Virus record (IMG/VR): IMGVR_UViG_3300042197_001183
Strand: one strand, 5' to 3'
DNA: 64,000 nt
Source of the DNA: an uncultured virus (IMG/VR IMGVR_UViG_3300042197_001183)
Lineage: Duplodnaviria > Heunggongvirae > Uroviricota > Caudoviricetes
The notes beneath the pieces are model-generated. The model ran no database searches. It was given only the letters and a program-made list of their open reading frames with translations, and was not told the DNA's origin. The stretch's first letter is position 1. Every line of letters starts with the position of its first letter. Positions 2,562 through 62,442 of the stretch are shown here, one piece after another. Made by a program: the position numbers and the translations under genes.

Positions 2562-3047
2562 CTAATAAATATTTGGTTTTATGTGTTTTATAAACTCTAC
2601 CCACACATCTTGTTCATTCTCATTTCTACCAATATTTGCACTGTAACAACTTAATACAACATTTCCCTTAACATAACCTAATTTATTGTTTAATCTATCT
2701 AAGGATGGTTGTTGGGGGTGTTTTTTAATTGATGACGGGATTAGGTCGACACCAAACCAATAACATTTACCCTGTTGTTTTTCAAATAGATAATTTATAT
2801 GTTCAATGTCGATGTCAATTTCGTAACCCCTATGTTTACAATCATGTATTAATGTGTTCTGCCACAATCGAATTCGTCTCTCTTTTTGTTTATTTTTTTC
2901 GATGATTCGATAATCTTCAGATTGTCTTTTTTCTTTTTTGTAATTTCTTGTTATTTCTAAATGACAAAGTTTACATGTTGATGACCTATTTGGTCTATAG
3001 AAATCTTTATCATCTTTTAAAATATTACATTTATTACATTTTTTCAT
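2562..3047 (-). CDS. HNH-like (His-Me finger) endonuclease, probable free-standing homing endonuclease
   Basis: N-terminal CxxC..FY..CxxC zinc ribbon; C-terminal CYW..SLDRLNNKLGYVKGNVVLSC..AN core. Confidence 0.75.
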   Translation of the reverse strand: MKKCNKCNILKDDKDFYRPNRSSTCKLCHLEITRNYKKEKRQSEDYRIIEKNKQKERRIRLWQNTLIHDCKHRGYEIDIDIEHINYLFEKQQGKCYWFGVDLIPSSIKKHPQQPSLDRLNNKLGYVKGNVVLSCYSANIGRNENEQDVWVEFIKHIKPNIY

Positions 3048-33906: not shown

Positions 33907-35547
33907 TTATAAAATTTTTTTATAGACAATTGTTCCACAATCATATATTCTGTAGATTTGTCTCTCTAACATAATTTTATGTTCGGTTTTATTTGTGATA
34001 TCAAATCCTTGTTTTTTTAATATTTCTTTTCTAAAATTAAAACGATGATATCGTTTTTTATTTTTAACATACCAATATGTTGGTTGATTAATTGATATTT
34101 TTTCAAATTTTAATTTTTCATATAAATCTCCTTGGCTCCACCTTCTATCGGCATAACTTACTATTTCTTTTGGTGAATATTTCTTGATGAAGAATTTAAG
34201 TAACCTATCTGCTCCACCAATTACAATTGTATTTAATTTATTACAGAATCTACTCAATTCGTAACCATCATAAAACTTACCAATTCCTAATCTGGGTCTT
34301 GTAAACACCATCAATGACACCAATTCTTCATTTAAAAACAAACCAATATTAATTTTAGAATTTATTTTTCCTTGGATATGATTTTCATTTAAAAAATTAC
34401 GGGAAATATTATTACTAACTTCTTTAATTGTACATCTTCTAGCAAAAATTTTATTTTTAGTTAATCCAAAAAGATTCATTAATCTAGATTTAACAATTTC
34501 TTTTTTGTCCAACCATTCATCTTCAAAAATATGTATTAGTTTTATTCCTTTACTTTCACATAATTCGGTTTTCCTCAAATGATAATTTTTATCAACCTTT
34601 AACTCATTGTGCCAATATAAACCATTAAATTCTATCGCGATATTATGTGATGGAACAAAAATATCCAATTGATTTGGTTTTATTATTGATGTTGATGACG
34701 TTATTGTTTTAATATTATTCTCAAATAAAAAATTATTAATTTCTTTTTCCATTCCTGAAACGGACGATGTACACATAATACATCCATGATTTGAAATATG
34801 GTCATATGGTAATTGTTCAAAAATACCATGTTCGGGGCAAATAATTTTTACCTTAGTTTGTGAATTAATATATTCAACCAATGAATAATCATATTTTTCT
34901 CCGTGAGTTAGTTTTGAATCTAAAATGAATTCTTCGGCTGTTTTAGTTAATGAAATTTTTCTATCGTTTGTTGAACATATTGGACAACCATTACCATATA
35001 AATGTTTCGATGGTAATTGATTAAATACTCCGTGTTCTTTGCAAATAATTTCAATCTTTGTTTTTGAATCAATATATTCAACCAACGAATAATCGTATTT
35101 GTTACCATGGGTAATTCTTGATTTTTTGATAAACCCGGTTAAATTGTCTTTTGGTTTCGTAATTAATTTTGAACATATAGGACAACCTTGTCCTTTCATA
35201 TGATTTGTTGGTAGTTGTTCAAATATTCCGTGTTCTTTGCAAATAATTTTAACTTTTGTTTTTGAATCAATATATTCAACCAATGAATAATCGTATTTAT
35301 TACCATGGGTTTTAACACATTTATTGATTAACTCAAGAGTATTTGTGGTATATTTTGAACACAATTTACATTTTATTCTACCTCTTAAATGTTCTCTTGG
35401 TTCTTGCTCAAATACTCCGTGTTCTTTGCAAATAATTTTAACTTTTGTTTTTGAATCAATATATTCAACCAATGAATAATCATATTTATCTTCATATAAT
35501 TTTTTTGCCTTTATAACAAATTTTTCTCTTTTAGTAAGTTTTTCCAT
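33907..35547 (-). CDS. Free-standing Hef-like homing endonuclease: four Zn-ribbon repeats, PD-(D/E)XK nuclease, C-terminal Hef/Mom-like domain
   Basis: Four KYDYSLVEYI.S.TK..IIC.EHG.F.Q.P..H repeats; LDIFVP..IAIEFNGLYWH; ELSRFC..IGGA..SYADRRWS. Antisense between sheath and tube; start probably MEKLTK (35547). Confidence 0.8.
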   Translation of the reverse strand: MEKLTKREKFVIKAKKLYEDKYDYSLVEYIDSKTKVKIICKEHGVFEQEPREHLRGRIKCKLCSKYTTNTLELINKCVKTHGNKYDYSLVEYIDSKTKVKIICKEHGIFEQLPTNHMKGQGCPICSKLITKPKDNLTGFIKKSRITHGNKYDYSLVEYIDSKTKIEIICKEHGVFNQLPSKHLYGNGCPICSTNDRKISLTKTAEEFILDSKLTHGEKYDYSLVEYINSQTKVKIICPEHGIFEQLPYDHISNHGCIMCTSSVSGMEKEINNFLFENNIKTITSSTSIIKPNQLDIFVPSHNIAIEFNGLYWHNELKVDKNYHLRKTELCESKGIKLIHIFEDEWLDKKEIVKSRLMNLFGLTKNKIFARRCTIKEVSNNISRNFLNENHIQGKINSKINIGLFLNEELVSLMVFTRPRLGIGKFYDGYELSRFCNKLNTIVIGGADRLLKFFIKKYSPKEIVSYADRRWSQGDLYEKLKFEKISINQPTYWYVKNKKRYHRFNFRKEILKKQGFDITNKTEHKIMLERQIYRIYDCGTIVYKKIL

Positions 35548-35555
35548 TATCACGA

Positions 35556-35562
35556 TATTTAT
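35556..35562 (+). promoter_or_regulatory. Putative late promoter (TATTTAT) of the tail tube gene
   Basis: Recurrent motif GATATTTATAAA. Confidence 0.5.
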
Positions 35563-35611
35563 AAACATACAAATAGAAGTATAATAATAAATATAAAGAA
35601 AAAAAAATAAA

Positions 35612-39470: not shown

Positions 39471-42400
39471 ATGCCAACATACTTAGATTTTAATAACACC
39501 AAGGTTTTTAGAGATTACTTAATTTCAAGAACTTTGAATAGACCGAACGGACCTCAAACGTTTACGGACACCAATTACGTTGTTCAAAATTTAAATAATT
39601 TTTCTAATGTAGACCCGGGAGATGTAAAAACAAATTGGTCGGTATTTTTTGCAAATACTTTTGGTCAAAATTTGTATAGCGCACCCGACAACACAATAGA
39701 AGAATATACTAATACAACACTACCAATGTTGGCTTGGATTAATAATGGTGTTATATCTGATGGATATTTTGATTCATTTACAATGACACAATCCCCCAAT
39801 TTAATTGGAATTATGGGTGGTCAAAGTTTTGAAAGTGATTCAAGATTAATGAAATTCGCGACACAAAATATTCGAGAAAATAAATTGGGTCCCGTTTTTG
39901 CAAGAGTACAACAAAACTTAGAATCAGCAACATTAGGTAGAGTTAGATTAATTGATGCTTTAGAAGGAAATACTGCAACTGCAATAAATCTTATTACAGG
40001 TAGAGAATCTTTAATTGAAAAAAATTATAAAATAACCGTAGATAAAACTTTAATAGGAAAAGGTGTTGATTTTTTGCAAACTGTTGCAGGTCTTGAATTT
40101 CCTTTTAGTGAAATACCGGGTGATTATTTAACAAACCCAAGAAATCCTATTGAAAATCGACCCACACCAAGAACAGAAGCGGGTGCCATTTTACAAGATG
40201 TTACAGGTGTTTTGGGAAGTTTAGTGGGTATTGAAAGAAGACCAAAATTAGGAAGAAAACCCTCTGACTTGTTTATTGAATATATGGGTGAAGGACAAAG
40301 ACAGACATTATATGACCAATTATCTTATTCAAAATACGCACCAAATTATACGACAACCGCTCGTTCACAACAATCTTCAAAAATATTTAATTTTGCAGAT
40401 AGACTTGCTAGCGGAGTAAATAGTTTGTTAGGATTAGAAGCACCTAAAGGAGTTGCATATATTGGTGATGATAGAAGTGAAGATGTTAAATATACAATGT
40501 CTGATTTTAATGACAGAGTTGTAAAAAGTAGTTATTACTTGAGTTTATTGTTTGACCCTGTTCAATCAAGGTTGTTTGAAAGACAAAGAAACATATCACA
40601 AGGCGGTGCAATTAGTGGAAAATTAACTTGGATAAGTAAAAATTCCCAAAACAAAATCGGGTTATATAATAGTGAATTTCAATCAGAAGAATCTAACACC
40701 TATAACGATTCTAAATCTACTAATTATAATTTTAGAGATGATTCGATTCTTGGTCTAACACAAGAGATTTTAGATTCGATGCCAAAAGATGGAATCGCTG
40801 CTAGAACACATGTCGGTAATGTCATCGACCAAACAAGTAGAATTTTTAAAGAAGGTGAATCAATGTTGTCAAGAAGTTCAGCAATAAAGTTTGTTGACAA
40901 ATTTAATCAAGAAACAGGCGCGGAGTATTGTAGAGTATGGACAAAAGATAGGTCTTATATGAACTATACCGATACAATGAAAAGAACGGCAAATATTAGA
41001 AAGTTTGATGATAGTGTTATGGGTGGGGATAGTCGACCATGGAACATTAATATGGCACCTATGTCAAGCGGTAATTACGACCCAAATGGAAACAACTCTT
41101 TCGGTGCAAAAAATTCAACAAACATATTTCAAGGACCACCAGGTGAAGGGTTTTATGCAAAAAAATATATGTTCTCAATTGAGAATTTGGCGTGGAAAAC
41201 TTCAAATACACCGGGATTCACTTATAATGATTTACCATATTGTGAAAGAGGAAATAATGGTGGTAGAGTTATGTGGTTTCCCCCTTACGATTTAAAGGTA
41301 AATGAAAACAATAGTGCTAGATGGACAGACAATACTTTCTTAGGTAGACCTGAACCTATTTACACATACCAAGACACGTCCAGAACGGGTACAATAAGTT
41401 TTAAAGTAATAGTGGACCATCCAAGTATTTTAAATTTGTTGGTTAGAGAACACTTTAAAGGAATGAGTGATGATGAATCGGAAAACTACATCAATGCATT
41501 TTTTGCGGGATGTGAAGAATTAGACTTTTACGATTTGGTTAGGAGATACGCTCAATTAGATAGAAACGATATAAGATTATTACAAAATTTTTTAGATAAA
41601 GGAAAAGACCCTGAGTTTATTCAGCAATATAAAGTAACAACAACTGACCCACCAATTATTGAGACACCCGTTAATCCTGTAGTTGAAGATTTATGTGGAC
41701 CACCAACAAATAAAACATTTATTTTAAAATTTAATAATGATAGTCCTGACCCTAATAGTAAAGGTTTAGAAACATCAAAAAATTATTCAAACTTATATAG
41801 TTCTTTTATCCCAACAAATAAAACAATATATTCCAATAATTTAGAAACTTTTATTAAACAATTAACAGGTTTTTCACAAAATGATGTCCAAGTTAAAAAA
41901 GAAAAGAGTTTTATTTTCGGTAATGAAAATGTCACAATCACCCAAACATTGATTAATGAACAAAAAACAAAAATAGAAAAATACTTTGACGACGCCACTT
42001 CTTCTTACGTCGATTATCAAACATCACTTAACGAATTAAAAACAAAATTATCTGGAAAAACTGCAGAAGATATTCGTATTAAAATATCATCATCAGCGTC
42101 TTCTGCCGCATCAAGTGATTACAATGAACGTCTAGCCATTAGAAGAAGTTATAGTGTTTTACAAGATATTTTTGATATCATATCAAGTGGAGGGACTAAA
42201 CCAAAAATTTTATGGATATCAGATTTAATGCCAACAAATAAAAATAATGGAGAAAATGATAAAGTAATAATTGAGAAAGGTAAACCAATTACCATCGTAA
42301 AAGAATATAAGATTAAAGATTTTGGTTACGATTATGATGGTAAAATTATTATTGAATCCGTTAATTATGGCGAAAATTTTACTGGTGGACAACCCGATAC

Positions 42401-44327
42401 CGATTGTGTTGGTAAAGAATTTGTAAAAGTTAGGGAACTTGGTATATATTCACCAATATCGTTTTATTGTAGACAAACTACTTTTGAATTAAAATATGAG
42501 AATCGTTCAAATAGTCAACCACCCCAATCTCAACCATTGAATAACCCAACAAACGTGGTAACAACAATAGAACCAAATGGTCAAATTCCTATTAGTCAAC
42601 CAACAAAAAAACCACCGATTGACCCAATAAAAAGAATTATTGCAAAAACATTGTCAGAATGTTTTTATTTTAAAAAATTAGAAGAAAACGACCCAATCGT
42701 ATTTAAATCACTTAAAGATAAGTTAAAATATTTTCATCCCGCTTTTCATTCAATGACACCCGAAGGATTAAATAGTAGATTAACTTTTCTATTACAATGT
42801 GTTAGACCAGGAGATACTATACCAATAAAAGGTATTTCCGAAGACTCTGATTTAAACGCAAGAAATACTTCCTTTGGTCCACCACCTATTTGTGTGGTTA
42901 GAATCGGGGATTTCTATCACTCAAAAGTAGTCATAAGGGATGTTCAAATCAGTTATGATGATGGTGGTAGTATATTATGGGATTTAAATCCCGAAGGTAT
43001 TGGTATTCAACCTATGATTGCAAATGTTACATTACAAGTATCATTTATTGGTGGTCAGGGTTTATCTAAACCCGTTGAAAGACTTCAAAATGCGTTATCC
43101 TCTAATTTCTTTGCAAATACCGAAATGTACGATGAAAGGTCAATTTCAACAAATGAAACGATTGGTGGAATGACACCTGAAGAATTTACAAAAGACTTTT
43201 TAGATAAATTGAATCAAGTTACCACCAATCCAACATTAAAAAATCTTTTATCAATTAAAAATAACAATAATGTTATTCAAGGTAATTACATAGGAACACC
43301 GATTGGGGAAACCAGTAACGTTGAAGAGATGAGTTATACTGAATTAGTTACTAATTTATTTAGTTTAACAAATTCATATTTTGAAAAATATAAATCAAAA
43401 TATAATCAACTTTACACCAAATATGGAAAAGATATCACAACTATGTTATTGAAAAATGATTATAGACCGATACATGAGTATGACGTTTATACAATTACTT
43501 CACCAACACCTGGTAAAGTATTAAATTTACTTGGTATTCATAAAAAAACGCAAGAATTGTCGGTTTATTGTGAAGGTTTACAAAAAACATTGAATGATTT
43601 TATTGATAATTCATCATCAACCTATTTGGTGAATTTATTTTCTTTTGATAAAGTTATAACTGGTTCTTTATTGTCTGACACAAATGAAAAAATATTGAAA
43701 CCATTTATCAAAAATGAAATAGTTCAAACAATAATAAATCAAATACTGGATAATAGTGAACTTAATGAATTAGAAAATTCAAGAAACGAATTAATAAAAA
43801 CATTAGATAAATTAAATTTTATAATAAAAAATGCGACAGACACCACTATTCAAGATGATAAAGTTAAACGTTTAAATTTCATTTCATTTACTTCTGATTT
43901 TATATACAAAGAGTATGAATCTTGTATAACCTACATTGAAGAAAACCACCCAAAATTAACCGAGGATTTGTCAACAAATATTACATTTTTAAATCCAACA
44001 ATACAATCGTCTGATTTTAATTTCATATTAAGTCAATTACTTTATGGTAAAGTTGATTTATTAATGGGAAAATTTAATAATCCAACTTTATATCCCGAAC
44101 AAATAAAGGTGAAGTTAAAAACAAGAATAGAAAGTTTTATTAAAAAACCAGAAGAAAAGGTCTTTAAATTAACAAAATTCAATAACAAAAAAACAGATAA
44201 GGAAATAAATTTTGATGTTTTAGATGCGGTTGATGAAACAGATACCACAATCATAAGTGAATCGATAAAATTATTTTCAGAATCCAATGAGGTTACAAAT
44301 AAATTAAATTTTTATAGGAAAAAATAA
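39471..44327 (+). CDS. Large baseplate/tube-initiator protein with an OmpA-like insertion
   Basis: Tube-initiator-like W.DNTFLGRPEPIYTYQDTSRTGTISF and PPICVVRIGDF; OmpA-C-like F.ND..ISSSAS..YNERLAIRRSYSV. Confidence 0.6.
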   Translation: MPTYLDFNNTKVFRDYLISRTLNRPNGPQTFTDTNYVVQNLNNFSNVDPGDVKTNWSVFFANTFGQNLYSAPDNTIEEYTNTTLPMLAWINNGVISDGYFDSFTMTQSPNLIGIMGGQSFESDSRLMKFATQNIRENKLGPVFARVQQNLESATLGRVRLIDALEGNTATAINLITGRESLIEKNYKITVDKTLIGKGVDFLQTVAGLEFPFSEIPGDYLTNPRNPIENRPTPRTEAGAILQDVTGVLGSLVGIERRPKLGRKPSDLFIEYMGEGQRQTLYDQLSYSKYAPNYTTTARSQQSSKIFNFADRLASGVNSLLGLEAPKGVAYIGDDRSEDVKYTMSDFNDRVVKSSYYLSLLFDPVQSRLFERQRNISQGGAISGKLTWISKNSQNKIGLYNSEFQSEESNTYNDSKSTNYNFRDDSILGLTQEILDSMPKDGIAARTHVGNVIDQTSRIFKEGESMLSRSSAIKFVDKFNQETGAEYCRVWTKDRSYMNYTDTMKRTANIRKFDDSVMGGDSRPWNINMAPMSSGNYDPNGNNSFGAKNSTNIFQGPPGEGFYAKKYMFSIENLAWKTSNTPGFTYNDLPYCERGNNGGRVMWFPPYDLKVNENNSARWTDNTFLGRPEPIYTYQDTSRTGTISFKVIVDHPSILNLLVREHFKGMSDDESENYINAFFAGCEELDFYDLVRRYAQLDRNDIRLLQNFLDKGKDPEFIQQYKVTTTDPPIIETPVNPVVEDLCGPPTNKTFILKFNNDSPDPNSKGLETSKNYSNLYSSFIPTNKTIYSNNLETFIKQLTGFSQNDVQVKKEKSFIFGNENVTITQTLINEQKTKIEKYFDDATSSYVDYQTSLNELKTKLSGKTAEDIRIKISSSASSAASSDYNERLAIRRSYSVLQDIFDIISSGGTKPKILWISDLMPTNKNNGENDKVIIEKGKPITIVKEYKIKDFGYDYDGKIIIESVNYGENFTGGQPDTDCVGKEFVKVRELGIYSPISFYCRQTTFELKYENRSNSQPPQSQPLNNPTNVVTTIEPNGQIPISQPTKKPPIDPIKRIIAKTLSECFYFKKLEENDPIVFKSLKDKLKYFHPAFHSMTPEGLNSRLTFLLQCVRPGDTIPIKGISEDSDLNARNTSFGPPPICVVRIGDFYHSKVVIRDVQISYDDGGSILWDLNPEGIGIQPMIANVTLQVSFIGGQGLSKPVERLQNALSSNFFANTEMYDERSISTNETIGGMTPEEFTKDFLDKLNQVTTNPTLKNLLSIKNNNNVIQGNYIGTPIGETSNVEEMSYTELVTNLFSLTNSYFEKYKSKYNQLYTKYGKDITTMLLKNDYRPIHEYDVYTITSPTPGKVLNLLGIHKKTQELSVYCEGLQKTLNDFIDNSSSTYLVNLFSFDKVITGSLLSDTNEKILKPFIKNEIVQTIINQILDNSELNELENSRNELIKTLDKLNFIIKNATDTTIQDDKVKRLNFISFTSDFIYKEYESCITYIEENHPKLTEDLSTNITFLNPTIQSSDFNFILSQLLYGKVDLLMGKFNNPTLYPEQIKVKLKTRIESFIKKPEEKVFKLTKFNNKKTDKEINFDVLDAVDETDTTIISESIKLFSESNEVTNKLNFYRKK

Positions 44328-44653
44328 TGAGTAGGCAATATTTTGATAGGTATCAATTTTTTATTGAAGATGGTTCTTTTAGAATCGTTCCCGGTATTGA
44401 GATACCAATAAAAACAACAGATAGATATTTGTTTTTTAAAAGGGGCAGAGATAGGTTAGATAGGTTGTCTTTAGAATATTATGGTTCACCTGTTTTTGGG
44501 TGGATAATACTTCAAGCAAATCCAACAATTGGTGGATTAGAATTTGAAATACCAGATAATTTTGTTTTAAGAATTCCTTTTCCATTGGTGGTGTCTTTAC
44601 AAGACTACAAAAAAAACGTAGAATTATATAACTTGTATTATGGTGAACAATAG
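44327..44653 (+). CDS. LysM-like baseplate wedge protein, gp53-like
   Basis: GRDRLDRLSLEYYGSP.FGWIILQANP..IP..LRIP. Confidence 0.8.
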   Translation: MSRQYFDRYQFFIEDGSFRIVPGIEIPIKTTDRYLFFKRGRDRLDRLSLEYYGSPVFGWIILQANPTIGGLEFEIPDNFVLRIPFPLVVSLQDYKKNVELYNLYYGEQ

Positions 44654-47600
44654 AGATTATCCAAATGGTGAAAACATATTAGTTAAAGTTGACCAAAATA
44701 ATCTTGTTTATGTTGACCCAAATAGTGTTGTAGATTCCAATGGTGAAATACATCCAAGAGGACATAAACAAGAAAACTTGGTTATGTATGTAAACTTGGA
44801 AGCCGATTTGGTACCTAGAACAATATTAACCATGGACAACGATAAAGGAAATACGTTAACACAAATTGCTAGTGGTAATTTAAATTTTTTAAAAAACGCA
44901 ACTGGTGATGGTAATTTTGATAGTACATGGACCGATTCGTTTGTACCAAAACCAATACAAGGTCAAGAATCAAACTACAAAGATGGTTATGATGTGACTT
45001 TTGGTGAAAATCAATTTAAAGATACCAGTGGACAAAGTTTTGGTATTGATTCGATTAGTATCTCAATTAAAGGTGCAAATTTTACCCCAACAGTGAATAT
45101 TTCTTTTATTGATGTAAGAGGAAAAACATTATTTGAGTCAAGTAATAATTCACCATACAGAGCGTTTTTCCATCTTCCATGGCCAATATTTTATTTAACA
45201 GTAAAAGGTTATTATGGAAAAGCCATTAGGTATAGATTACACATGACAAAATTTTCATCAAGATTTAATGAGTCTAATGGAAATTTTGAAATATCAACCA
45301 TTTTTGTTGGTTCAACATACGCTTGGATGAATGATATTACATTATCTCAAATAATAACGTGTCCTTATATGTTTTTAGTTGAAGAAAACAAAAATACAAG
45401 TTTCAATGAAAAAACCGGATTATATGAAAAAAGAGTATCCCATTCTTCAAGAGGATATCAAATATTGAAATCGGTATATAGACAATATGAACAAAAAGGA
45501 TTAATTCCAAAAGGATTTCCAGTGAGGACTTTAATAGAGATGGGTTATATTGCTGAAAGTTTAGATAAAATTTTAGAACAAAAAATTTTTGGTGAAGTTG
45601 ATATGGGGGTTTTTCAGGGAATAAAAGAATTAGATGAAACTATAACTAATTTCGATAGGGCTTTTAAGGCTTGGGGTAAAAAAAATTTAGATAATTTACA
45701 ATCGGAAAAAATATCAGAAAATGAATTTTGGTATTATACATCACAAAAAGACAAAACAAAATTAAATTGGGACACAGGGGGAATAACTGGTGATAAAAAT
45801 GGTACATTGGAATTGTTAATTAAAAATTTTAACGAAACCATTCAAAAAAACAGATTGTTTGCACAACAACTTTTAAAAAACACAACCGATGGTGATTTTA
45901 AAAAAATATCAATAAAATCTTTAAATAATGTAATAACTTACTATAAGGTTTTACCTGATAAAAAAGTGATTGTTAATATTGACGGAATCTTTAATGATTT
46001 ATTTCAAATAAGGAAATTGTTTGAAGAACAAAGAAAGAAAGTTGAAGATGATGTTGAAACAAAAATGAATGAAATAATAAAGGGTAAAGAGGGGTTCGGT
46101 TTTGAACCAACTATTAGAAACATGTTTGCTGTTTTGTTGGCCAATGCTGAAGTTTACATTCGTTTAATGAAAGACGTTCACAATAAGGCGTACAACGCAT
46201 CAAATACTAGAAAAAACGCAATTAAAGAACTTTCAAGTGAATCTAAAGGAGAAAATGTTTATCCGTGGCCTGAAATAACAAAACCACAACAAGGTGGAAA
46301 AATAAACGTTATCGCATATCCTGGTGACGAACAACTTATTCATAAATTAGAGTCGTATGATAGTGCAAAGTGGCCTGAGGTTGATTTTGTAGAAGAATAC
46401 CTTAAAATTAACACAAATAGAGTCGAAACAAACGTAAACAAAGAACCAACAAGAAATGATGTTAATTACATATTTGATTCTAATGCAGATTTAAATAACG
46501 TCTCACCAATATCGACAACTGATTTTATTATAAAAAGAGTACCATACATTGACAAAGATTATGCGTCTTTTTTATATGAAGTGTATGAAAGAGCGAGATA
46601 TTTAACAATGTTTGATTCTTTTACCAATGAAATGTTAACAGAATTGGCAAATGAAGAATTTAATAACATAAAAAATTCCATAAAAGAAGACGGGGATTTA
46701 ATTGAAATTGCAAAAAAAATAAATGGATTAGAAGATTTTATTAATGTAAAATATCAACAACAAAGAAAAGATGAAAATGGTAAGATTGAAGTCGATGAAA
46801 ATGGTAACCCAAAAACATATACAGAATACGGAGGATATTTATTTTTATCATCACCTTATGATAAATTTTCAAGTTATATAGATACAATACCAACAACCAA
46901 TTATTTGGTCGAGGTATTAAGTGAACCATTTGCGTTTGAAAGTTATAATTTAAACGTTATAGTAAAAGAAGGTGGTTTAGATGATACTAAGATAAATAAT
47001 TTTTTATTAAATTATCAACCAGAATCATATAGAAAAAATATATATCCATTTAATTCGTCCACATATTTGAGTTATATAAACAAAACAACGTTTGGTGATG
47101 ACAATTTTAAATTCAATGGAATACTAAAATATGAACCATATAATGGGTTCATTTCCTCACCAATTGAATCAAAATCTTGGGTAAAACCAGGAAGTAATAA
47201 CTTAACTAATTTTTTTCTAAATACAATTAATGTAACTGGTAATACTCTTTCAATTTTGAATACACCATATTTTCATAATCAATTGTATTATGATTTTAAT
47301 AAATCATCAGTAAATGGTAAATATGTTGGTTCGGCTTATCTTCTATTAAATTCGTTACCATTTATTGATTTGGATGAACAAATTACTTTTGAAAATAAAT
47401 CAATATCGGTATCTTCTTTATTTAGAGAAATAGGTTCTACACATTTTGTACCATATCATTTGTTATTAAAATGGGGGTCGATTTATCATAGGTATAAAAA
47501 ACATCTAATTGATGGGGACGATATTTTAGAAGGGGCAGTAAATTCGATTTACGTTACCAAACCATTATCAGGTCAAACCTTATTTGATAACAATTCAGGG

Positions 47601-50438
47601 TATACATTTACAATAACACCTAAAGTGTCAACAACAACTGGTTCATCCGTAAACGTATCATATAGTAATTTTGAAGATGTTGGATTATCACCATTTTATC
47701 AAGGAATATATAGTCAAATTGTTAATGGATATAGTCATTACAATACGTCGTTAGGTAATATTTCCTATTCGGCAAATACTTTGAATGATAGTATTTTACA
47801 TAGAGTTAGAACAAAAACACAAATGAACTATTGGGATGTTTTAATGGATAATACGAAATACAAAACAAACGAAAAAACATACACACTTCTACCTTCCATC
47901 GGAGATTACTCTAATACAAAAATTAATTCTAATAACACATTTGATTTTGCCCAACAGATTGGGTTTAGAACTTTATGGTTTTCAGATGACACAATAAATA
48001 ATTCATTTACGGGTCAAACTTTCCCAACACCTTATGAGTATTTTAGAACAACGGGAAACACTTATTCCATATCAGCAAATTATAAAAAGGCGTTAGATTT
48101 AATTGGTACATTTAGTCCTACAATCCTTGAATATTTTGAAAGTTATTTTTTAGATTTCGCAAGTCAAAAAATGAATGACGAAGTACCTTACAAACCATTT
48201 AGTGGTTTAACTTTTCAAAAATTTCAAGATGTGTTAAATAGATTAAGTGTCATTGATAAAACTAATTTACCACAGAATCCAACATCAAATATTGATTTAT
48301 TAATAACTAATATAAAAGAAAAACAAAAAGAAGCTGCAGAAATTATAACCAGTAGTATTTTGGGTAGTAATAATTTAATACAATTTAGTTTAGCTAACCC
48401 AAAGGAAATTGACCCATATATATTATATGGGATGACAAAGGCCATTCCAAATACAAGATATCTAACTCAATCATTTAACCCCTCCGATATCAACTCCACT
48501 AATTTAAATTTTATCAAATTATATATTGGTGAAGACATTGATGGGTATTACTTAGAGTTTTTTAATATTAATAACATAAAATTAATTGAAGATAATATAA
48601 AAACACATAGACCATATGCTCAGATATATGGTGGATATAGAAAAAATGGAGGTGTAGCAAACAGGTCTTCTTTTGTAAATTATTTAACAAGTGAAATTAT
48701 TATTAAAAAATCAAATAATAATATAGTTGCGGATGGTTCTGATAATAGATTTAGATATTTTATAACTCAACTTTTAAATAAATTCAAAACGTTAGATAGC
48801 AACGAGTCTAAAAATCCCTCATCTAGAATTGATAGATTTAGAGGATATAATTCTGATAACACAAAATTAGAATTATACAACACATTTAAATCATTTAATG
48901 ATAAGTGGACATCAGGTAATTCAATTGGACAAAGATTATTATTGGAAGAATTTTTATTTTTGGACAAGGCCAATAGAGATATTGGTGACAAGTTATATCT
49001 TAATATTGATAGATTTAAAGACCTATTAAATCCAAAAAATATAAAACAATCTTTGTATGGTGCGATATCCATGATGATTCAAGGGACGGGTTTAGATATG
49101 AGAGCATTACCGGCCTACATAAATTTTTATGGTAATAATGTGAATATCAAAAACAAGATAAGACCCTCAAAAAAAGTCGCATCAGATTTATTTGGTACAT
49201 TTTTAGAAGTGGACTATCAAGAGGCGACGCCAAAAATTATAATCCAATTGGTTGGGTATAATTCAAAAAGACTAGATATGTCAAATAGTAAACCATATAA
49301 ATTTGTTGATGATAGTTTTTATATTGGAAGTCAGAATAATAACCCATTACTTATTACATCTTTGGAAAGTTTTTCAAAAAATGATTTATCAAAATCAAAT
49401 AGAGTTGTTGCATTTGAGGTTAGTTTTGGAGACCAAAATCAAGGGATTTTTAAGGGATTAACACTTGACCAAACAAACTTAAAAAATACGTCAGAATCTT
49501 TTGTTGTTTTGGAAAACTTGGCTAGGTCGGCGTCTGGTGCCGGTGTTTACAATGTTGATGTTTCATTGTTTGATTATTACAAACAAGCGTCTTACAAATG
49601 TGATGTGACCGCCATGGGTAACGTTATGATACAACCAACGATGTTTTTTTATTTGAAAAATGTACCAATGTTTAGAGGTTCATATTGGATAACAGAAGTT
49701 GTACATACAATAAAGTCAAATAACATATCAACAACGTTTTCGGGTGCAAGAATACCTTATTCCTCCTTACCTGACCCAAAAGATTCGTTCGTTGCGAGTT
49801 ATAGAATCTTATTCGATAAGATACAATCTAAGGCAAGTAGAATAATAAAACAACGAGAACTTAATAGAACTGATACAGAGGAAAAGGTAATATATCAAGG
49901 AATAGAATATATAACGGATAGACGAGGTAAAATCATTCAAGGAGAGCAAATATTAAATAAATTAGACGATGTTAATATTAATAAATTTGGTGTACCATTT
50001 AATGGGTTTAACGAACAAAGAACAATTCAAAAAGTAAAAAATAATAACCAAGTTTGGCTAAGAGGATTGGCGGTAGAAATGGGTGGGACAGGATACACTA
50101 TTAGTGATTCAACAAGCATGAATATTGCCAATGGTATCGAGTTTTCAAAAATACGAAATACCGATTACAAATATTTTATGGTTAATTTTCAATTATCTAG
50201 ACAAATTACACCTGATTTAATTAGAACAGCAAAAACAACGTTTAAAAATCCAAAAAATAATAAAACCATAATTGTTAATCCAAATTACCAATTAGATGAA
50301 TCTATTGGAACAATTGTCGCAGAGGGTCCGGTTTCGGTTGGACCGATAAGTAACACCTATGGAATATCGTTGTCAAAAAAATTAATGAGTGAACTTAAGT
50401 TGTTTGATGGTGATGTTGTTTATTTCATTATGGAATAA
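44640..50438 (+). CDS. Very large baseplate hub-like protein (gp27/GpD-type regions)
   Basis: FGIDSISI..P.V.ISFIDVRG and Y.C.V.AMGN..IQP...F.GSYWITEVVHTI...STTFSG; position after the LysM wedge gene. Confidence 0.6.
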   Translation: MVNNRDYPNGENILVKVDQNNLVYVDPNSVVDSNGEIHPRGHKQENLVMYVNLEADLVPRTILTMDNDKGNTLTQIASGNLNFLKNATGDGNFDSTWTDSFVPKPIQGQESNYKDGYDVTFGENQFKDTSGQSFGIDSISISIKGANFTPTVNISFIDVRGKTLFESSNNSPYRAFFHLPWPIFYLTVKGYYGKAIRYRLHMTKFSSRFNESNGNFEISTIFVGSTYAWMNDITLSQIITCPYMFLVEENKNTSFNEKTGLYEKRVSHSSRGYQILKSVYRQYEQKGLIPKGFPVRTLIEMGYIAESLDKILEQKIFGEVDMGVFQGIKELDETITNFDRAFKAWGKKNLDNLQSEKISENEFWYYTSQKDKTKLNWDTGGITGDKNGTLELLIKNFNETIQKNRLFAQQLLKNTTDGDFKKISIKSLNNVITYYKVLPDKKVIVNIDGIFNDLFQIRKLFEEQRKKVEDDVETKMNEIIKGKEGFGFEPTIRNMFAVLLANAEVYIRLMKDVHNKAYNASNTRKNAIKELSSESKGENVYPWPEITKPQQGGKINVIAYPGDEQLIHKLESYDSAKWPEVDFVEEYLKINTNRVETNVNKEPTRNDVNYIFDSNADLNNVSPISTTDFIIKRVPYIDKDYASFLYEVYERARYLTMFDSFTNEMLTELANEEFNNIKNSIKEDGDLIEIAKKINGLEDFINVKYQQQRKDENGKIEVDENGNPKTYTEYGGYLFLSSPYDKFSSYIDTIPTTNYLVEVLSEPFAFESYNLNVIVKEGGLDDTKINNFLLNYQPESYRKNIYPFNSSTYLSYINKTTFGDDNFKFNGILKYEPYNGFISSPIESKSWVKPGSNNLTNFFLNTINVTGNTLSILNTPYFHNQLYYDFNKSSVNGKYVGSAYLLLNSLPFIDLDEQITFENKSISVSSLFREIGSTHFVPYHLLLKWGSIYHRYKKHLIDGDDILEGAVNSIYVTKPLSGQTLFDNNSGYTFTITPKVSTTTGSSVNVSYSNFEDVGLSPFYQGIYSQIVNGYSHYNTSLGNISYSANTLNDSILHRVRTKTQMNYWDVLMDNTKYKTNEKTYTLLPSIGDYSNTKINSNNTFDFAQQIGFRTLWFSDDTINNSFTGQTFPTPYEYFRTTGNTYSISANYKKALDLIGTFSPTILEYFESYFLDFASQKMNDEVPYKPFSGLTFQKFQDVLNRLSVIDKTNLPQNPTSNIDLLITNIKEKQKEAAEIITSSILGSNNLIQFSLANPKEIDPYILYGMTKAIPNTRYLTQSFNPSDINSTNLNFIKLYIGEDIDGYYLEFFNINNIKLIEDNIKTHRPYAQIYGGYRKNGGVANRSSFVNYLTSEIIIKKSNNNIVADGSDNRFRYFITQLLNKFKTLDSNESKNPSSRIDRFRGYNSDNTKLELYNTFKSFNDKWTSGNSIGQRLLLEEFLFLDKANRDIGDKLYLNIDRFKDLLNPKNIKQSLYGAISMMIQGTGLDMRALPAYINFYGNNVNIKNKIRPSKKVASDLFGTFLEVDYQEATPKIIIQLVGYNSKRLDMSNSKPYKFVDDSFYIGSQNNNPLLITSLESFSKNDLSKSNRVVAFEVSFGDQNQGIFKGLTLDQTNLKNTSESFVVLENLARSASGAGVYNVDVSLFDYYKQASYKCDVTAMGNVMIQPTMFFYLKNVPMFRGSYWITEVVHTIKSNNISTTFSGARIPYSSLPDPKDSFVASYRILFDKIQSKASRIIKQRELNRTDTEEKVIYQGIEYITDRRGKIIQGEQILNKLDDVNINKFGVPFNGFNEQRTIQKVKNNNQVWLRGLAVEMGGTGYTISDSTSMNIANGIEFSKIRNTDYKYFMVNFQLSRQITPDLIRTAKTTFKNPKNNKTIIVNPNYQLDESIGTIVAEGPVSVGPISNTYGISLSKKLMSELKLFDGDVVYFIME

Positions 50439-56849: not shown

Positions 56850-57827
56850 ATGAAAGAAAAGATTTTACAAGAAAATCCGGGACGCTTTGTCCTTTTCCCA
56901 ATCGAATATCACGATATATGGAAACTCTATAAACAACAACAAGCTTGTTTTTGGACCGCAGAAGAAATCGATTTAAAAGACGATATATATGATTGGGAAA
57001 ATAAATTAAATGAAGATGAACAACATTTCGTAAAACACGTATTGGCGTTTTTCGCGGCATCAGATGGGATAGTAAATGAAAATTTGGCTATGAATTTTGT
57101 TAACGAGGTTCAATATACTGAAGCCAAAATGTTTTATGGGTTTCAAATTATGATGGAAAATATTCATAGTGAGACTTACTCGTTGTTGATTGATACTTAC
57201 ATTAAAGATAAACAAGAACAGAATAAATTATTCAACGCAATTGAAACAATTCCCGCGATTAAAAAGAAAGCGGAGTGGGCCATAAAATGGATTAATTCTA
57301 ATTCATTTGTTGAAAGGTTAATTGCATTTGCGGCTGTCGAGGGGATTTTCTTTTCTGGTTCGTTTTGTTCCATATTTTGGTTAAAAAAGAGAGGTTTAAT
57401 GCCGGGTCTAACATTCTCAAACGAATTAATTTCAAGAGATGAAGGAATGCATTGTGATTTTGCTTGTCACCTATATAATCAACATATCCAAAACAAATTA
57501 TCTGAAAAGAAAATAAGGGAAATTATTTGCGGGGCATTAGAAGTTGAAAAGGAATTTATTCTTGAGGCATTACCTGTTAGATTAATCGGTATGAATTCTG
57601 ACCTAATGTCTCAGTATTTGGAATTTGTAACGGACAGATTATTAGTTTCGTTAAATTGTTCTAAAGTATATAATGTTGAAAACCCATTTGATTTTATGCA
57701 AAATATTGCTCTTCAAGGTAAAACTAACTTCTTTGAAAAAAGAGTTGCTGAATATCAAAAAGCGGGAGTTAACAATAGTAGTTCTATTGAAGAAATGAAT
57801 GGTTCATTTGATGATATTGATTTTTAA
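56850..57827 (+). CDS. nrdB: Ribonucleotide reductase class Ia beta subunit
   Basis: [31 protein letters not shown] (radical Tyr), [17 protein letters not shown]. Confidence 0.97.
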
Positions 57828-57840
57828 AATTTAAAAAAAT

Positions 57841-60800
57841 ATGAAAGTTAAAAAGAGAGATGGGTCATTAGAAGAAATGAGATATGACAAAATCACAAGA
57901 AGAATTCAAAATTTTTGTGACGATTTAAATCTTGAATATATTGACCCCACATGGATAACACTTAAAGTAACGCAAGGTATATACGATGGTATATCAACAA
58001 CGGAATTAGATGTATTAGCAGCGGAGACCGCTGCCTCTCTTGTTACTTCTCATTCAGACTATGCAAAATTAGCTGGTAGATTGGCAGTATCTAATTTACA
58101 CAAAACAACACCAAAGAAATTCTCTCAATCAATAAAAGAATTACATTCTTTTGTTGAACCAAAAACAAACAAAGAATCTTCGTTAATATCTAACGAAACA
58201 TATTCATTTGTTCAACAATATAAAGATGTTTTAGATGGTGCCATTGTTCAAGAAAGAGATTTTGATTTTGATTATTTTGGTTTTAAGACATTAGAACGTT
58301 CATATCTATTGAAGATTGGTAATCGTATTGTTGAAAGACCGCAATACATGTATATGAGAGTTGCTGTTGGTATTTGTAATAACGACATTGAAAACGCTTT
58401 AAGGATTTATGATGATTTATCTCAACATTTTTATACCCACGCAACTCCAACATTATTTAATGCGGGAACACATAGACCACAAATGTCATCCTGTTTTTTG
58501 ATTGGTAATAAAGGTGATGATATTGATGGTTTATTTGACACAATAAAAGATGTTGCAAAAATATCTAAATGGGCGGGTGGTATTGGTTTACATGTTCACG
58601 ATGTAAGAGGTAAGGGTGCGTATATTAAAGGGACGGGTGGTGAGTCAGATGGTTTATTACCGATGATGAAAACATACAACGAAGTTGCTCGCTGGATTAA
58701 TCAATGTTTTACACCTGACACTTTATTATACACCAGTGAAGGTGTAAAAAGAATGGACGAATTACGAAATGGTGATTTAGTATTAACTAAAGAAAGAAAA
58801 TATTCCGAAGTAGGTGAGGTTTTAGTTTATCACCAAAATGGTGGAATGATTGAGATTGAAACCAAATCAACCTTAAAACCACTAAGGTTAACAGATTCAC
58901 ATCCGTTGTTTGGGTTTAAGAATACATATAGTAGAATATCTAGAGAAAATAGTGAATTTCTTAATCAATTAGAAAAGGGTATTGTGACCCCTGATTGGAT
59001 TGATAGTGGTGAATATAAAGTTGGTGATTTTATCGGTAAACCAATCCCAAAAGAAATTATTGATGTTGAAGATTTCACAGAAGACGACGCGTTTATTTAT
59101 GGGTTATTATTGGGTGATGGTCACATTAGTAGAAAGGAAGTGGGTATATCATTTAATAAAATAACTAACGAAAACGAAGTTAATTTTGTTAAAGACTATT
59201 TAACTAAAAAAGGTATAAATTTTTGGGAACACAGTTCAGATGAAAGACCATATTTAAATGTGAGATTTTCATTATCTAAATTATCGTGGTTATCATATGA
59301 GTTACTTTATAATGATAAAAAAGAGAAAAGGATTCATTTAAAATATTCACATTTACCTTTAAATAAATCAATTAGAATTATTTTAGGGTTAATTAAATCG
59401 GACGGAGGTGTTTATAGAAAAAATGAAATACATTTCTATAACACTAGTGAACTATTAATTGAAGGTATGTCATATCAAATACTTAGATTTGGCGTTCCAA
59501 CATATGGGGAATGGAGGGTTAGAGAGAATAATAGTGTTTATTTAAAAGAAAATGGTTGTAATAAAGAAAATACCTTATCGTGTGATTTAAGAATACCATC
59601 ATTCAAAGAATTATCTGATTTGTTGAATATTGAACAAGTGACTAAGAAAAATTGGATAATATGGGATAATATTCTTTATACTAGAATCACAAGTATAAAA
59701 ATGTTAGATGATTATGATGGAAAAGTCTACGATTTAAAAATTAAAGAAAATAGCGATGACCCATCATATACTCTGACCAGTTGTTTAGTTCACAATGGGG
59801 GAAAAAGACGCGGTTCATTTGCTGTTTATCTCGAACCATGGCACTCAGATGTATTTGAGTTTATTGAATTAAGAAAAAACCATGGAAAAGAAGAATTAAG
59901 AGCCAGAGATTTATTTTTAGCGATGTGGGTTCCTGATTTATTTATGAAAAGAGTGGAACAAGATTTAGATTGGTCATTATTTTCACCAGATGAAGCACAT
60001 GGATTATCCGACGTGTACGATGACCCGTATTTGTTTACTCAAGAATTTACTGAACTTTATGAAAGATATGAGAAGGAAGGTAGAGCAAGAAAAGTCGTAA
60101 AGGCTAGAAAATTAATGGATGCCATTTTGACCGCACAAATTGAAACGGGGGTACCTTATATGTTGTATAAAGATGCTGCTAATTACAAGTCAAACCAAAA
60201 GAACTTAGGTACAATTAAATCATCTAACTTGTGTATAACAGGTGACCAAAGAGTGGTGACAACAAAGGGTTACTTAACAGCTAAAGAATTGTGTGAAATG
60301 GATGTGGAATTAGAACTTTTTAATGGTTCTGAAATTGTCAAATCATCCAAAATGATTAAACGAGGTGAAAATGAAGATGTTTATAAAATAACATTAGAAA
60401 ATGGTATGGAACATAAAGTAACACCATATCATGGAATACCTGTAATTGACTCAAGAAATAATATAACACGTATTGAATGTAAGGATTTAAAAATAGGTGA
60501 TAAAATACCAATACAAATTAATAAAGGATTGTTTGGTTCAAAAGAAATGGTAGATGAGTCCTTTTTATTGGGTTTATATCAATCAGATGGTACGCAAAAC
60601 AAATCATCAATTTTATTTGATTTATGGGAAAATGATTTTGATTTAGTTGAAGAGATTGAAAACAAAATTCAAAAATTATATTCAAAATACGAGTATAAAC
60701 CTAGATATTCAACTAAAGGTGGTAAATTTATAGATTGTGTTGTTTCATTTTCTAAAGTAAAGAAAAAAAGATTATCTAGTGAATTTTTTAAAAAAGAATT

Positions 60801-62442
60801 ACTCTTTGAAAAGGGATATGTACCCGAATGGATTTGGTCTTCAAATGAAGAAACGCAATGGTCTTATTTGCGGGGTTTATTATTTGCTGATGGAACAGCT
60901 AATAAAAATAAATCAAAAGGAGAACCAATACAAATAAGTTATGCCGACATAAATATTGATTTTTTAAAAGAACTTCAATTAATTTTTCAAAATTTAGGTC
61001 TTCAAACATCTATTAGATTGTTAAGAAATGGAGGTCAACGGTCATTACCAAATGGTAAAGGTGGATATTCACTATACAAAACAAAAGATTGTTATAGATT
61101 AATTGTTGGTAATAAAAATGACTCACAAAAAATAAATGAAAAAATAGGGTTTCTTGATAGAAAAAACATAATCATTGACAATCGTGAATTTCGGGATAAT
61201 ACGAAAAAGGGATATAAAGTAAAATCCATAGAATATGTGGGTAAAGAAGATGTTTATTGTCCAACAATTTATAATGATGAACATATTTTTATTTCACAAG
61301 GATTAAAAACATTTAATTGCACTGAAATTCTAGAATTTTCTTCTTCAGAAGAACAAGCGGTTTGTAATTTAGCATCTATTGCTTTACCAAAATACATTGT
61401 TAATAAAGATTTTAGTCACGAGTTACTTTATGAATATGTATATCAAGTAGTAAAAAATTTGAACAATGTTATTGATTTGAATTTTTACCCAACAGACGAA
61501 ACGAAACTTTCGAATATGAGACACAGACCAGTTGGTTTAGGTGTTCAAGGATTGGCCGATGTTTTTTGTATATTGAAAATACCATTTGAAAGTGAAGAAG
61601 CGAATAAATTACAGGTTGAAATATTTGAAACAATGTATTTTGCAGCATTATCATCGTCAAAAGATTTATCAAAAGAAAATGGACCATATTCATCTTATGA
61701 AGGTTCGCCAATTTCTAAAGGTAAATTTCAATATGAACTTTGGGGTAAAAAAGATGAAGACACTAGTGGTAGATGGGATTGGAAATTTTTAAGAAATGAG
61801 ATTTTAAACCATGGTGTAAGAAATTCTCTTTTAATTGCCCCAATGCCAACGGCATCTACCGCTCAAATTTTAGGTAATAACGAAGCCTTTGAACCTTTTA
61901 CCTCTAATCTCTATTCAAGAAGAACATTGGGTGGTGAATTTATTGTAATCAATAAACATTTGGTTAATGAATTATTAGAAAGAGGGTTATGGTCTGACGA
62001 TATAAAGAAAAAACTAATAATGGAAAATGGTTCAGTACAAAACATACCAGAAATTCCTGTTGATGTAAAAGAAATTTATAAAACTGTTTGGGAGATGTCA
62101 CAAAAAAGAATTTTAACAATGGCAGCTAACAGGTCAATTTATATTGACCAATCCCAGTCATTAAATTTATTTATCGATAATGCTAGTAAAACAAAAGTTA
62201 TGGCCGCTCATTTATATGGTTGGAAACTTGGATTAAAAACGGGTATGTACTATCTTAGAACTAAGGCAGCCGTTGACCCAATTAAGGGTTTGGGTATTGA
62301 TACTTCGTCTTCAAAACCAAATGTTGAAAATCATACAAACAATGTTAAAGAACAAAATTTAACAAGTAATTATGTTGAAGAAATGGTTTTATCGATTAAA
62401 CCAAATGATTCACCATTTGAATGTGAAGGTTGTGGTTCATAA
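57841..62442 (+). CDS. nrdA: Ribonucleotide reductase class Ia alpha subunit with ATP cone and two inteins
   Basis: VKKRDG ATP cone, ATPTLFNAG, SSCFL, SNL/CTEI, CNLAS, APMPTASTAQ, KTGMYY, C-terminal CEGCGS. Confidence 0.97.
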   Translation: MKVKKRDGSLEEMRYDKITRRIQNFCDDLNLEYIDPTWITLKVTQGIYDGISTTELDVLAAETAASLVTSHSDYAKLAGRLAVSNLHKTTPKKFSQSIKELHSFVEPKTNKESSLISNETYSFVQQYKDVLDGAIVQERDFDFDYFGFKTLERSYLLKIGNRIVERPQYMYMRVAVGICNNDIENALRIYDDLSQHFYTHATPTLFNAGTHRPQMSSCFLIGNKGDDIDGLFDTIKDVAKISKWAGGIGLHVHDVRGKGAYIKGTGGESDGLLPMMKTYNEVARWINQCFTPDTLLYTSEGVKRMDELRNGDLVLTKERKYSEVGEVLVYHQNGGMIEIETKSTLKPLRLTDSHPLFGFKNTYSRISRENSEFLNQLEKGIVTPDWIDSGEYKVGDFIGKPIPKEIIDVEDFTEDDAFIYGLLLGDGHISRKEVGISFNKITNENEVNFVKDYLTKKGINFWEHSSDERPYLNVRFSLSKLSWLSYELLYNDKKEKRIHLKYSHLPLNKSIRIILGLIKSDGGVYRKNEIHFYNTSELLIEGMSYQILRFGVPTYGEWRVRENNSVYLKENGCNKENTLSCDLRIPSFKELSDLLNIEQVTKKNWIIWDNILYTRITSIKMLDDYDGKVYDLKIKENSDDPSYTLTSCLVHNGGKRRGSFAVYLEPWHSDVFEFIELRKNHGKEELRARDLFLAMWVPDLFMKRVEQDLDWSLFSPDEAHGLSDVYDDPYLFTQEFTELYERYEKEGRARKVVKARKLMDAILTAQIETGVPYMLYKDAANYKSNQKNLGTIKSSNLCITGDQRVVTTKGYLTAKELCEMDVELELFNGSEIVKSSKMIKRGENEDVYKITLENGMEHKVTPYHGIPVIDSRNNITRIECKDLKIGDKIPIQINKGLFGSKEMVDESFLLGLYQSDGTQNKSSILFDLWENDFDLVEEIENKIQKLYSKYEYKPRYSTKGGKFIDCVVSFSKVKKKRLSSEFFKKELLFEKGYVPEWIWSSNEETQWSYLRGLLFADGTANKNKSKGEPIQISYADINIDFLKELQLIFQNLGLQTSIRLLRNGGQRSLPNGKGGYSLYKTKDCYRLIVGNKNDSQKINEKIGFLDRKNIIIDNREFRDNTKKGYKVKSIEYVGKEDVYCPTIYNDEHIFISQGLKTFNCTEILEFSSSEEQAVCNLASIALPKYIVNKDFSHELLYEYVYQVVKNLNNVIDLNFYPTDETKLSNMRHRPVGLGVQGLADVFCILKIPFESEEANKLQVEIFETMYFAALSSSKDLSKENGPYSSYEGSPISKGKFQYELWGKKDEDTSGRWDWKFLRNEILNHGVRNSLLIAPMPTASTAQILGNNEAFEPFTSNLYSRRTLGGEFIVINKHLVNELLERGLWSDDIKKKLIMENGSVQNIPEIPVDVKEIYKTVWEMSQKRILTMAANRSIYIDQSQSLNLFIDNASKTKVMAAHLYGWKLGLKTGMYYLRTKAAVDPIKGLGIDTSSSKPNVENHTNNVKEQNLTSNYVEEMVLSIKPNDSPFECEGCGS
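58705..59796 (+). mobile_element. Intein 1 in nrdA (364 aa, LAGLIDADG), +1 residue Gly
   Basis: WINQ|CFTPDT..LTDSHP..YGLLLGDG..LGLIKSDG..VYDL..LVHN|GGKRRG. Confidence 0.88.
60232..61317 (+). mobile_element. Intein 2 in nrdA (362 aa, LAGLIDADG) at the catalytic Cys
   Basis: SSNL|CITGDQ..VTPYH..LGLYQSDG..LRGLLFADG..VYCP..KTFN|CTEI. Confidence 0.92.

Follow-up and report, generated by a model that had tools for sequence, protein, structure and literature searches.

Reviews of protein splicing define inteins partly by the Cys, Ser or Thr that immediately follows them (the +1 residue) and set bacterial intein-like domains (BILs) apart by its absence (passages of PMC4031507 and PMC7664689). According to the same passages, the +1 residue is the nucleophile required for transesterification. 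Type A BILs begin with Cys, end with His-Asn and lack a +1 nucleophile; a route through thioester formation, Asn cyclisation and attack by a free amine is proposed for them, and they can splice (passage of PMC4031507). Here we analyse an element that shares these three features with type A BILs. It is an intein (intein 1) inserted in loop 2 of the large subunit of a class Ia ribonucleotide reductase (RNR), encoded by nrdA, and it is followed by Gly. The gene is carried by IMG/VR record IMGVR_UViG_3300042197_001183, from an uncultured virus of the Caudoviricetes. The 64,000 nucleotides analysed, called the window below, are part of a tailed-phage genome. A first-pass annotation, made by a model from the letters of the window, had drawn attention to the Gly and had stated that splicing of class 1 to 3 inteins needs Cys, Ser or Thr at +1, with which the passages cited above agree. 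This NrdA is probably matured by a chemistry that has never been tested for a true intein.

Some inteins at the same site have been published. Entries in the supplement of Green et al. 2018 (PMC5784728) include an intein, marked InBase, in the RNR large subunit of CroV (Cafeteria roenbergensis virus), located at the same NQ/C..HN/ site (a slash marks a junction between intein and extein), with the start CFTPDT and a LAGLIDADG endonuclease. It differs in its +1 residue: this is Ser in CroV (SGRRKGS), for which the canonical route is possible, and Gly in the window. The CroV junction is of the NQ/SG type found in 12 of the 121 inteins described below. Other entries in this supplement concern RNR inteins of Pandoravirus inopinatum, Pandoravirus salinus and Pandoravirus dulcis, in which the N-extein ends with ARYVDQ and the C-extein begins with GGGKRKG, giving Gly at +1; the main text of PMC5784728 makes no mention of glycine, Gly or Pandoravirus. 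In bacteria, an nrdA intein with an annotated LAGLIDADG_3 domain is recorded for Azotobacter chroococcum NCIMB 8003 as well as A. vinelandii DJ (PMC4465626) and is known here from that annotation alone; the Azotobacter passages of the paper do not mention the +1 residue. Azotobacter vinelandii and Thiothrix disciformis have also been flagged as intein carriers (Novikova et al. 2016). The split NrdA inteins of Dassa 2009 occupy the site of the thiyl-radical cysteine, not loop 2. Members of the loop-2 family (CroV, Pandoravirus, Azotobacter) have thus far been tabulated or annotated in published work that makes no remark on Gly. InBase listed an A. vinelandii RIR1 entry under the label BIL; no paper was found in a literature search for this label.

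Intein 1 of the window starts with CFTPDT, ends with LVHN and lies between the flanks ARWINQ and GGKRRGSFAVYLEPWH. The first-pass annotation had described it as a 364-residue intein with Cys1, a block B motif (LTDSH), two LAGLIDADG motifs, VYDL and a terminal His-Asn. All of these features are borne out. The range originally given (58693..59814) includes short extein flanks in addition to the intein proper (Table 1). Cys1, the block B Thr and His, the block F Asp and the His-Asn end are class 1 features; the class 1 feature that is absent is Cys, Ser or Thr at +1. Among 114 distinct inteins of the family, C1, G13, T63, H66, G228, D343, Y355, H363 and N364 never vary. A helper role had also been suggested for the Cys of TSCLVHN (Cys360). 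This was rejected, since the residue is not conserved among relatives: these read, for example, SSA, SQA, SNG or HLG, and conservation of the column in the 114 inteins does not reach 90%.

Searched alone against Pfam, intein 1 matches LAGLIDADG_3 (E 7.6e-10), while the scores of Hint_2 (28.1 bits) and of Intein_splicing (26.6 bits) lie slightly below the Pfam cut-offs. An AlphaFold2 model, built from a 19-row alignment, has a predicted local distance difference test score (pLDDT) of 87.4 and a predicted template modelling score of 0.87; the pLDDT of the extein flanks is below 50. The top PDB matches of this model in Foldseek are LAGLIDADG inteins (E 1.2e-18 to 4e-9). The canonical class 1 inteins TliVMA (7QSU), PI-SceI (1EF0/1VDE), PhoVMA (7QST), PI-PfuI (1DQ3) and PI-PkoII (2CW7) give template modelling scores of 0.55-0.66, normalised to the query. 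These inteins are followed by Cys, Ser or Thr, whereas intein 1 is followed by Gly. A profile search of the PDB sequences places PI-PkoII first (2.7e-11), with canonical inteins spanning 2.7e-11 to 1e-5. When a single sequence is used as query, intein 1 finds one weak match (2CW7, E 0.0037).

Against the family profile, the BIL domain 2LWY of Clostridium thermocellum reaches E 4.2e-5, in a match that covers the N-terminal part only and is weaker than those of canonical inteins. By sequence, intein 1 is nearer to canonical inteins, as the E-value of PI-PkoII indicates, than to BILs. There are other differences. BILs occur in variable regions of non-conserved bacterial proteins (passage of PMC7765530), whereas intein 1 occupies the invariant loop-2 site. 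The passages on BILs mention no endonuclease, whereas intein 1 has a conserved endonuclease and intein-free alleles. Intein 1 is a real intein by its fold, its motifs and the comparison with empty sites, and its Pfam match, its in-frame insertion and its intein-free alleles place it within the genetic definition of an intein.

Table 1. Coordinates in the window of nrdA, its exteins and inteins, the principal residues of intein 1, and the adjacent nrdB-like gene
Feature	Coordinates	Strand	Basis or conservation
nrdB-like small subunit gene, 325-aa open reading frame (ORF)	56850..57827	+	named by sequence reading and position directly 5' of nrdA
nrdA, encoding a 1533-aa precursor of the class Ia RNR large subunit that contains two inteins	57841..62442	+	ORF list and Pfam
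N-extein, 288 aa, end ARWINQ	57841..58704	+	gapless alignment to 3HNC chain A
Intein 1, 364 aa, HINT splicing domain with nested LAGLIDADG endonuclease	58705..59796	+	
Cys1 (TGT), N-terminal nucleophile	58705..58707	+	114/114 distinct related inteins
Block B TDSH, residues 63-66	58891..58902	+	Thr63 114/114, His66 114/114
LAGLIDADG motif 1 YGLLLGDG, residues 132-139	59098..59121	+	Asp138 108/114, Gly139 113/114
LAGLIDADG motif 2 GLIKSDG, residues 228-234	59386..59406	+	Gly228 114/114, Asp233 111/114
Block F VYDL, residues 341-344, with Asp343	59725..59736	+	Asp343 114/114
Cys360 of TSCLVHN	59782..59784	+	not conserved among relatives
Terminal His363-Asn364 (CAC AAT)	59791..59796	+	114/114 in metagenomic set
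+1 residue Gly (GGG); Cys/Ser/Thr in class 1-3 inteins	59797..59799	+	read from sequence
Middle extein, GGKRRGSFAVYLEPWH through SSNL	59797..60231	+	
Intein 2, 362 aa, start CITGDQ, end TFN, Cys at +1	60232..61317	+	
C-extein, CTEILEF to stop codon	61318..62442	+	

To examine empty sites, 80 viral loci recovered in a search with the N-extein (87-100% identity) were sorted by the state of their loop 2. No intein is present at loop 2 in 74 of the 80, which read ARWINQGG(K/R)R at this place (ARWINQGGKRKG in 63 loci and ARWINQGGRRRG in 11). Because so many close relatives are intein-free with one of these two sequences, removal of the insert restores the native loop. An intein followed by Gly is present in four loci; one locus is cut by the end of its contig and in one the motif was not found.

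The phage contig L020 has 95-99% DNA identity to the window and lacks both nrdA inteins. Its empty sites therefore fix the boundaries of intein 1 as Gln/Cys and Asn/Gly and demonstrate mobility. Mismatches between the two DNAs cluster at the junction: the C-extein opens with seven in 12 nt and continues with 0-3 per 60 nt, and the Gln codon preceding intein 1 differs in its last base. This pattern resembles a co-conversion tract produced by homing. Over the first codons after the intein (59797..59811) the window has GGKRRG (GGG GGA AAA AGA CGC) and L020 (3365..3379) has GGRRRG (GGC GGC CGC CGC CGC). This part of the window looks like a chimera, in which a donor-type GGKR tract would be joined to the third Arg codon of the recipient as a 12-nt co-conversion footprint. 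A further protein, P0003, includes intein 1 and lacks intein 2, and differs from the window protein at 1 of 797 and 5 of 374 residues of the exteins and intein 1; the two inteins therefore come and go independently. Intein 1 is an intact and recently mobile LAGLIDADG intein.

The Gly at +1 is not confined to this record. Contigs from three other studies (X2, X3 and X5) span 58400..60100 at an identity of at least 99%, without indels and with no difference at the codons for Cys1, His-Asn or Gly+1. In 13 related viral loci, with 75-99% intein identity, the +1 codon specifies Gly throughout, being GGG in one, GGA in six and GGT in six. A search with intein 1 and its flanks identified 205 NrdA proteins at E<=1e-3. 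The best 120 of these 205 were analysed together with the window (121 in all), and among them the intein always occupies one site, after the Gln of loop 2. Besides this site, a C[FVIL]-type start and a final Asn characterise the family, and the window intein has both. The junction is DQ/GGG in 72, NQ/GG in 36, NQ/SG in 12 and DQ/GGN in one, that is, Gly+1 in 109/121 and Ser+1 in 12/121. In an unrooted FastTree tree the window intein falls in a clade of 32 NQ/GG rows (support 100), and the 12 Ser+1 inteins lie on one side of a single branch (support 98). Bacterial genomes were scanned with one genome per species and a single LAGLIDADG pattern. This gave at least 50 loci, all counts being lower bounds. 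The 45 that could be parsed all have Gly+1 (GGC in 31, GGT in 7, GGA in 4 and GGG in 3). The intein ends with Ser-Asn instead of His-Asn, still before Gly+1, in 4 of the 45. These four (L129, L130, L131 and L142) come from Thiothrix fructosivorans, Thiocystis minor and two metagenome-assembled genomes.

The GGG codon at 59797 noted in the first pass is thus read identically in the window and in the independent contigs, and its Gly recurs in the relatives. What had been presented as a single oddity is the normal state of a large family. That the Gly stems from faulty sequencing or assembly, or from a Ser, Cys or Thr codon that mutated very recently, had been raised as a possible undoing of the observation. 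No sign of either was seen in contigs or homologues, and with contigs from three studies, synonymous Gly codons, intein-free NQGG alleles and Gly+1 in 109/121 and 45/45 relatives this explanation is refuted and its probability is close to nil. Loss of one residue at the junction was also considered, given that distant intein-free homologues read DQGGGKR, and was rejected: close intein-free relatives natively read NQGGKR. Judged from the sequences compared, the RNR loop-2 intein family is widespread and normally has Gly, not Cys, Ser or Thr, at +1.

One member of the family is split. In a 636-kb uncultured phage (L001; LR756504.1), a split intein with Gly+1 occupies the Q/G site of loop 2: its N half begins after AVDQ and its C half ends at VHN/GGGK. 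The nrdA gene of this phage (265..4565) has three interruptions within about 1.5 kb. A free-standing ORF of 303 aa lies between the intein halves and has a weak match, below cut-off, to the DUF4379 treble-clef domain (E 0.0037). A group I intron (2671..2950; RF00028, 60.4 bits) is found four codons past the intein.

The Ser+1 inteins were approached through P0043, the host protein of one of them, and 120 of its relatives. These include 73 intein-free NQGG alleles, 24 intein-free NQSG alleles and seven with an intein at NQ/SG; 16 were not parsed. The 24 intein-free NQSG alleles indicate that Ser in this position is a natural variant of the loop. The Ser+1 intein is present in 7/31 Ser alleles compared with 0/73 Gly alleles (Fisher p 1.2e-4, with relatedness ignored). 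This bias may result from target choice by the endonuclease together with co-conversion, or from a real need for Ser in this clade. Ser+1 and Gly+1 inteins are separated only at positions 34, 52, 345 and 348, none of which is known to be catalytic.

Residues 1-288 of the N-extein align without gaps to residues 1-288 of human RRM1 (3HNC chain A, E 7e-104). The residue preceding the intein (-1) is therefore Q288 in the human and yeast numbering, which bears out the earlier placing of the insert in loop 2. Passages of Kumar et al. 2010 (PMC2896522) describe how loop 2 (Y285, D287, Q288 and R293) carries specificity to the catalytic site, with Q288 contacting every substrate but GDP, and how single loop-2 substitutions unbalance pools of deoxynucleoside triphosphates (dNTPs) or kill yeast. 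The phage clade to which the window belongs has a native Asn at the position of yeast D287 (Asn-Gln, 58699..58704) and a loop 2 that is one residue shorter (NQGGKR versus DQGGGKR). In the same passages, viable yeast with rnr1-D287N was not obtained.

Several observations concern function in the carriers. Comparison of the window with seven intein-bearing relatives gave ratios of nonsynonymous to synonymous substitution of 0.01-0.11 for the N-extein, 0.03-0.06 for the middle extein and 0.05-0.36 for the C-extein. Within intein 1, the N-splicing part gave 0.11-0.17, the endonuclease 0.11-0.21 and the C-splicing part 0.05-0.06. Both intein 1 and the exteins are under purifying selection. The remainder of nrdA had been said to show no decay, and indeed the Pfam families ATP-cone, Ribonuc_red_lgN and Ribonuc_red_lgC are intact in the exteins (E 1.3e-189). 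Three cultured bacteria have draft genomes (Thiolinea disciformis DSM 14473, Thiothrix fructosivorans ATCC 49748 and Thiocystis minor DSM 178) in each of which the only PF02867 matches are to both halves of a single intein-bearing ORF. No class III NrdD was found in the draft genome of Thiolinea disciformis DSM 14473, where the intein-bearing gene is the sole RNR catalytic gene detected; maturation of this protein must therefore work. The PF02867 result in these three bacteria is the strongest evidence that a Gly+1 junction is compatible with life.

By analogy with type A BILs, we see about an even chance that intein 1 would ligate its exteins by a free-amine route, converting the precursor to a working enzyme with no side-chain nucleophile at +1. 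The residues required for thioester formation and for Asn cyclisation are all there and do not vary; the one absentee is the side-chain nucleophile at +1. Cys1, aided by Thr63 and His66, would form a thioester with the preceding Gln. Asn364, aided by His363 and Asp343, would then cyclise and free the C-extein, leaving Gly at its N terminus. The unhindered alpha-amine of this Gly, held in the active site, would attack the thioester, and the exteins would end up joined by an ordinary NQ-GG peptide bond. Such a route has been suggested for type A BILs; here it would operate in a homing intein proper, within a conserved enzyme. A wider proposal can be made tentatively, and we would put it a little short of an even chance. 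It is that the loop-2 inteins form a fourth mechanistic class of homing inteins, which would ligate by the alpha-amine of Gly with enough efficiency to supply the sole RNR of free-living bacteria, the Ser+1 inteins (CroV) being a side branch.

A number of points weigh against free-amine ligation. Cleavage products dominate in type A BILs (passages of PMC4031507 and PMC7664689), and a Magnetospirillum BIL spliced only after its Tyr+1 had been changed to Cys (passage of PMC4031507). The literature covered, which did not extend to subscription papers or to one supplement of PMC4760082, provided no experiment on or discussion of loop-2 inteins and nothing on a true intein without a +1 nucleophile. 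The low pLDDT of the flanks makes the geometry of the junction unreadable from the predicted model. A second RNR in Thiolinea may have escaped detection, its genome being a draft. The window alone says little about function, since phages may be able to do without their RNR. In addition, the occurrence of Ser+1 inteins in Ser alleles only could mean that their clade needs Ser.

The predominance of cleavage in type A BILs also speaks for a different explanation, in which both ends are cleaved and nothing is ligated. The thioester would be hydrolysed and Asn364 cyclised, leaving a non-covalent RNR of two chains, the 288-aa N fragment and the C fragment, nicked in loop 2. Conservation of Cys1 and His-Asn fits cleavage as well as it does ligation, and the loop-2 site tolerates a split intein in L001. 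There is also a precedent for a two-chain enzyme: NrdA of Aeromonas phage Aeh1 is, like that of the window, interrupted by a mobile element, and its two genes, split by mobE, form a fully active enzyme from two chains (passages of PMC3045599). However, according to these passages the split in Aeh1 is one of the DNA, made by a free-standing endonuclease, with no intein involved and at another position of the protein, and its chains need special assembly tails, none of which is present in the window NrdA. Moreover, the nick would fall directly after Q288, in a loop where the substrate contacts and harmful substitutions reported in PMC2896522 suggest that a break would be hard to accommodate. We regard double cleavage as rather unlikely, but as the main alternative to ligation. 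Free-amine ligation and a two-chain enzyme are the two routes that the first-pass annotation had offered, and both still stand.

Two further explanations have very little probability. In one, ligation or cross-linking would use another nucleophile (the epsilon-amine of a Lys, at +3 here and +4 in GGGK forms, Cys360, or a downstream Ser) to give an isopeptide or ester product. A Lys or Arg does follow two or three small residues in every member of the family, which might hint at such a role. Yet some members have Arg and not Lys at +3 (GGRRKG, for example), Cys360 is not conserved, and a loop 2 with a branch is unlikely to work. The alpha-amine of Gly is, in any case, the better nucleophile at neutral pH. 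The other explanation, which we hold to be equally improbable, is that there is no productive maturation: the intein would be retained or the precursor dead, with the host supplying dNTPs. This draws on the accessory nature of phage RNR genes and on the fact that the window is only part of a genome, in which a second RNR is possible. It is opposed by the strong purifying selection on the exteins of intein-bearing alleles, by the invariant catalytic residues and by the Gly+1 junction in the sole PF02867 gene of three cultured bacteria. In addition, the intein-bearing phage was assembled at an identity of at least 99% in three further studies.

The loop-2 family is mobile, carries an endonuclease and resides in a conserved enzyme, and about nine in ten of its members lack a +1 nucleophile. 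If these inteins ligate, a +1 nucleophile can no longer be held a requirement for splicing, and the line between inteins and BILs becomes blurred. They would also offer a natural ligation scaffold in which glycine is all that remains at the junction, free of any Cys, Ser or Thr scar. If cleavage is all that they do, there is a class Ia RNR that functions while its specificity loop is cut beside a residue that contacts the substrate, which would matter for our understanding of how loop 2 transmits allosteric information.

The second intein of nrdA immediately precedes the Cys of the conserved SNLC motif and has a normal +1 Cys. It matches LAGLIDADG_3 (3.1e-13) and Intein_splicing (8.9e-10) in Pfam. 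With both inteins removed and the exteins joined, NrdA would be a chain of 807 aa. Contigs from one RNA run (X18) cover only 58466-58616 and 59963-60100 of this region, at a depth of 2-3.3, with no coverage of the intein and no joints.

Elsewhere the window encodes a tail sheath, a gp25 baseplate protein, a gp32-like protein, a family B DNA polymerase and an SNF2 helicase. Two very large ORFs on the + strand, 39471..44327 (1618 aa) and 44640..50438 (1932 aa), match no Pfam family at E<=1e-5. The polB ORF (21786..25748) contains a third intein-like insert of 355 aa (23529..24593), which begins with SVEYDT, ends with LLKN and is followed by Thr (TDGVNF), dividing the motif VMD/TDG. It matches LAGLIDADG_3 (E 3e-13); its first residue is Ser, a penultimate His is absent and the Thr at +1 is canonical. 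An ORF of 553 aa on the opposite strand (33907..35568, -) matches the DUF4379 treble-clef zinc finger (E 5.2e-9), the domain weakly matched by the free-standing ORF within the split intein of L001, and may encode a free-standing homing endonuclease.

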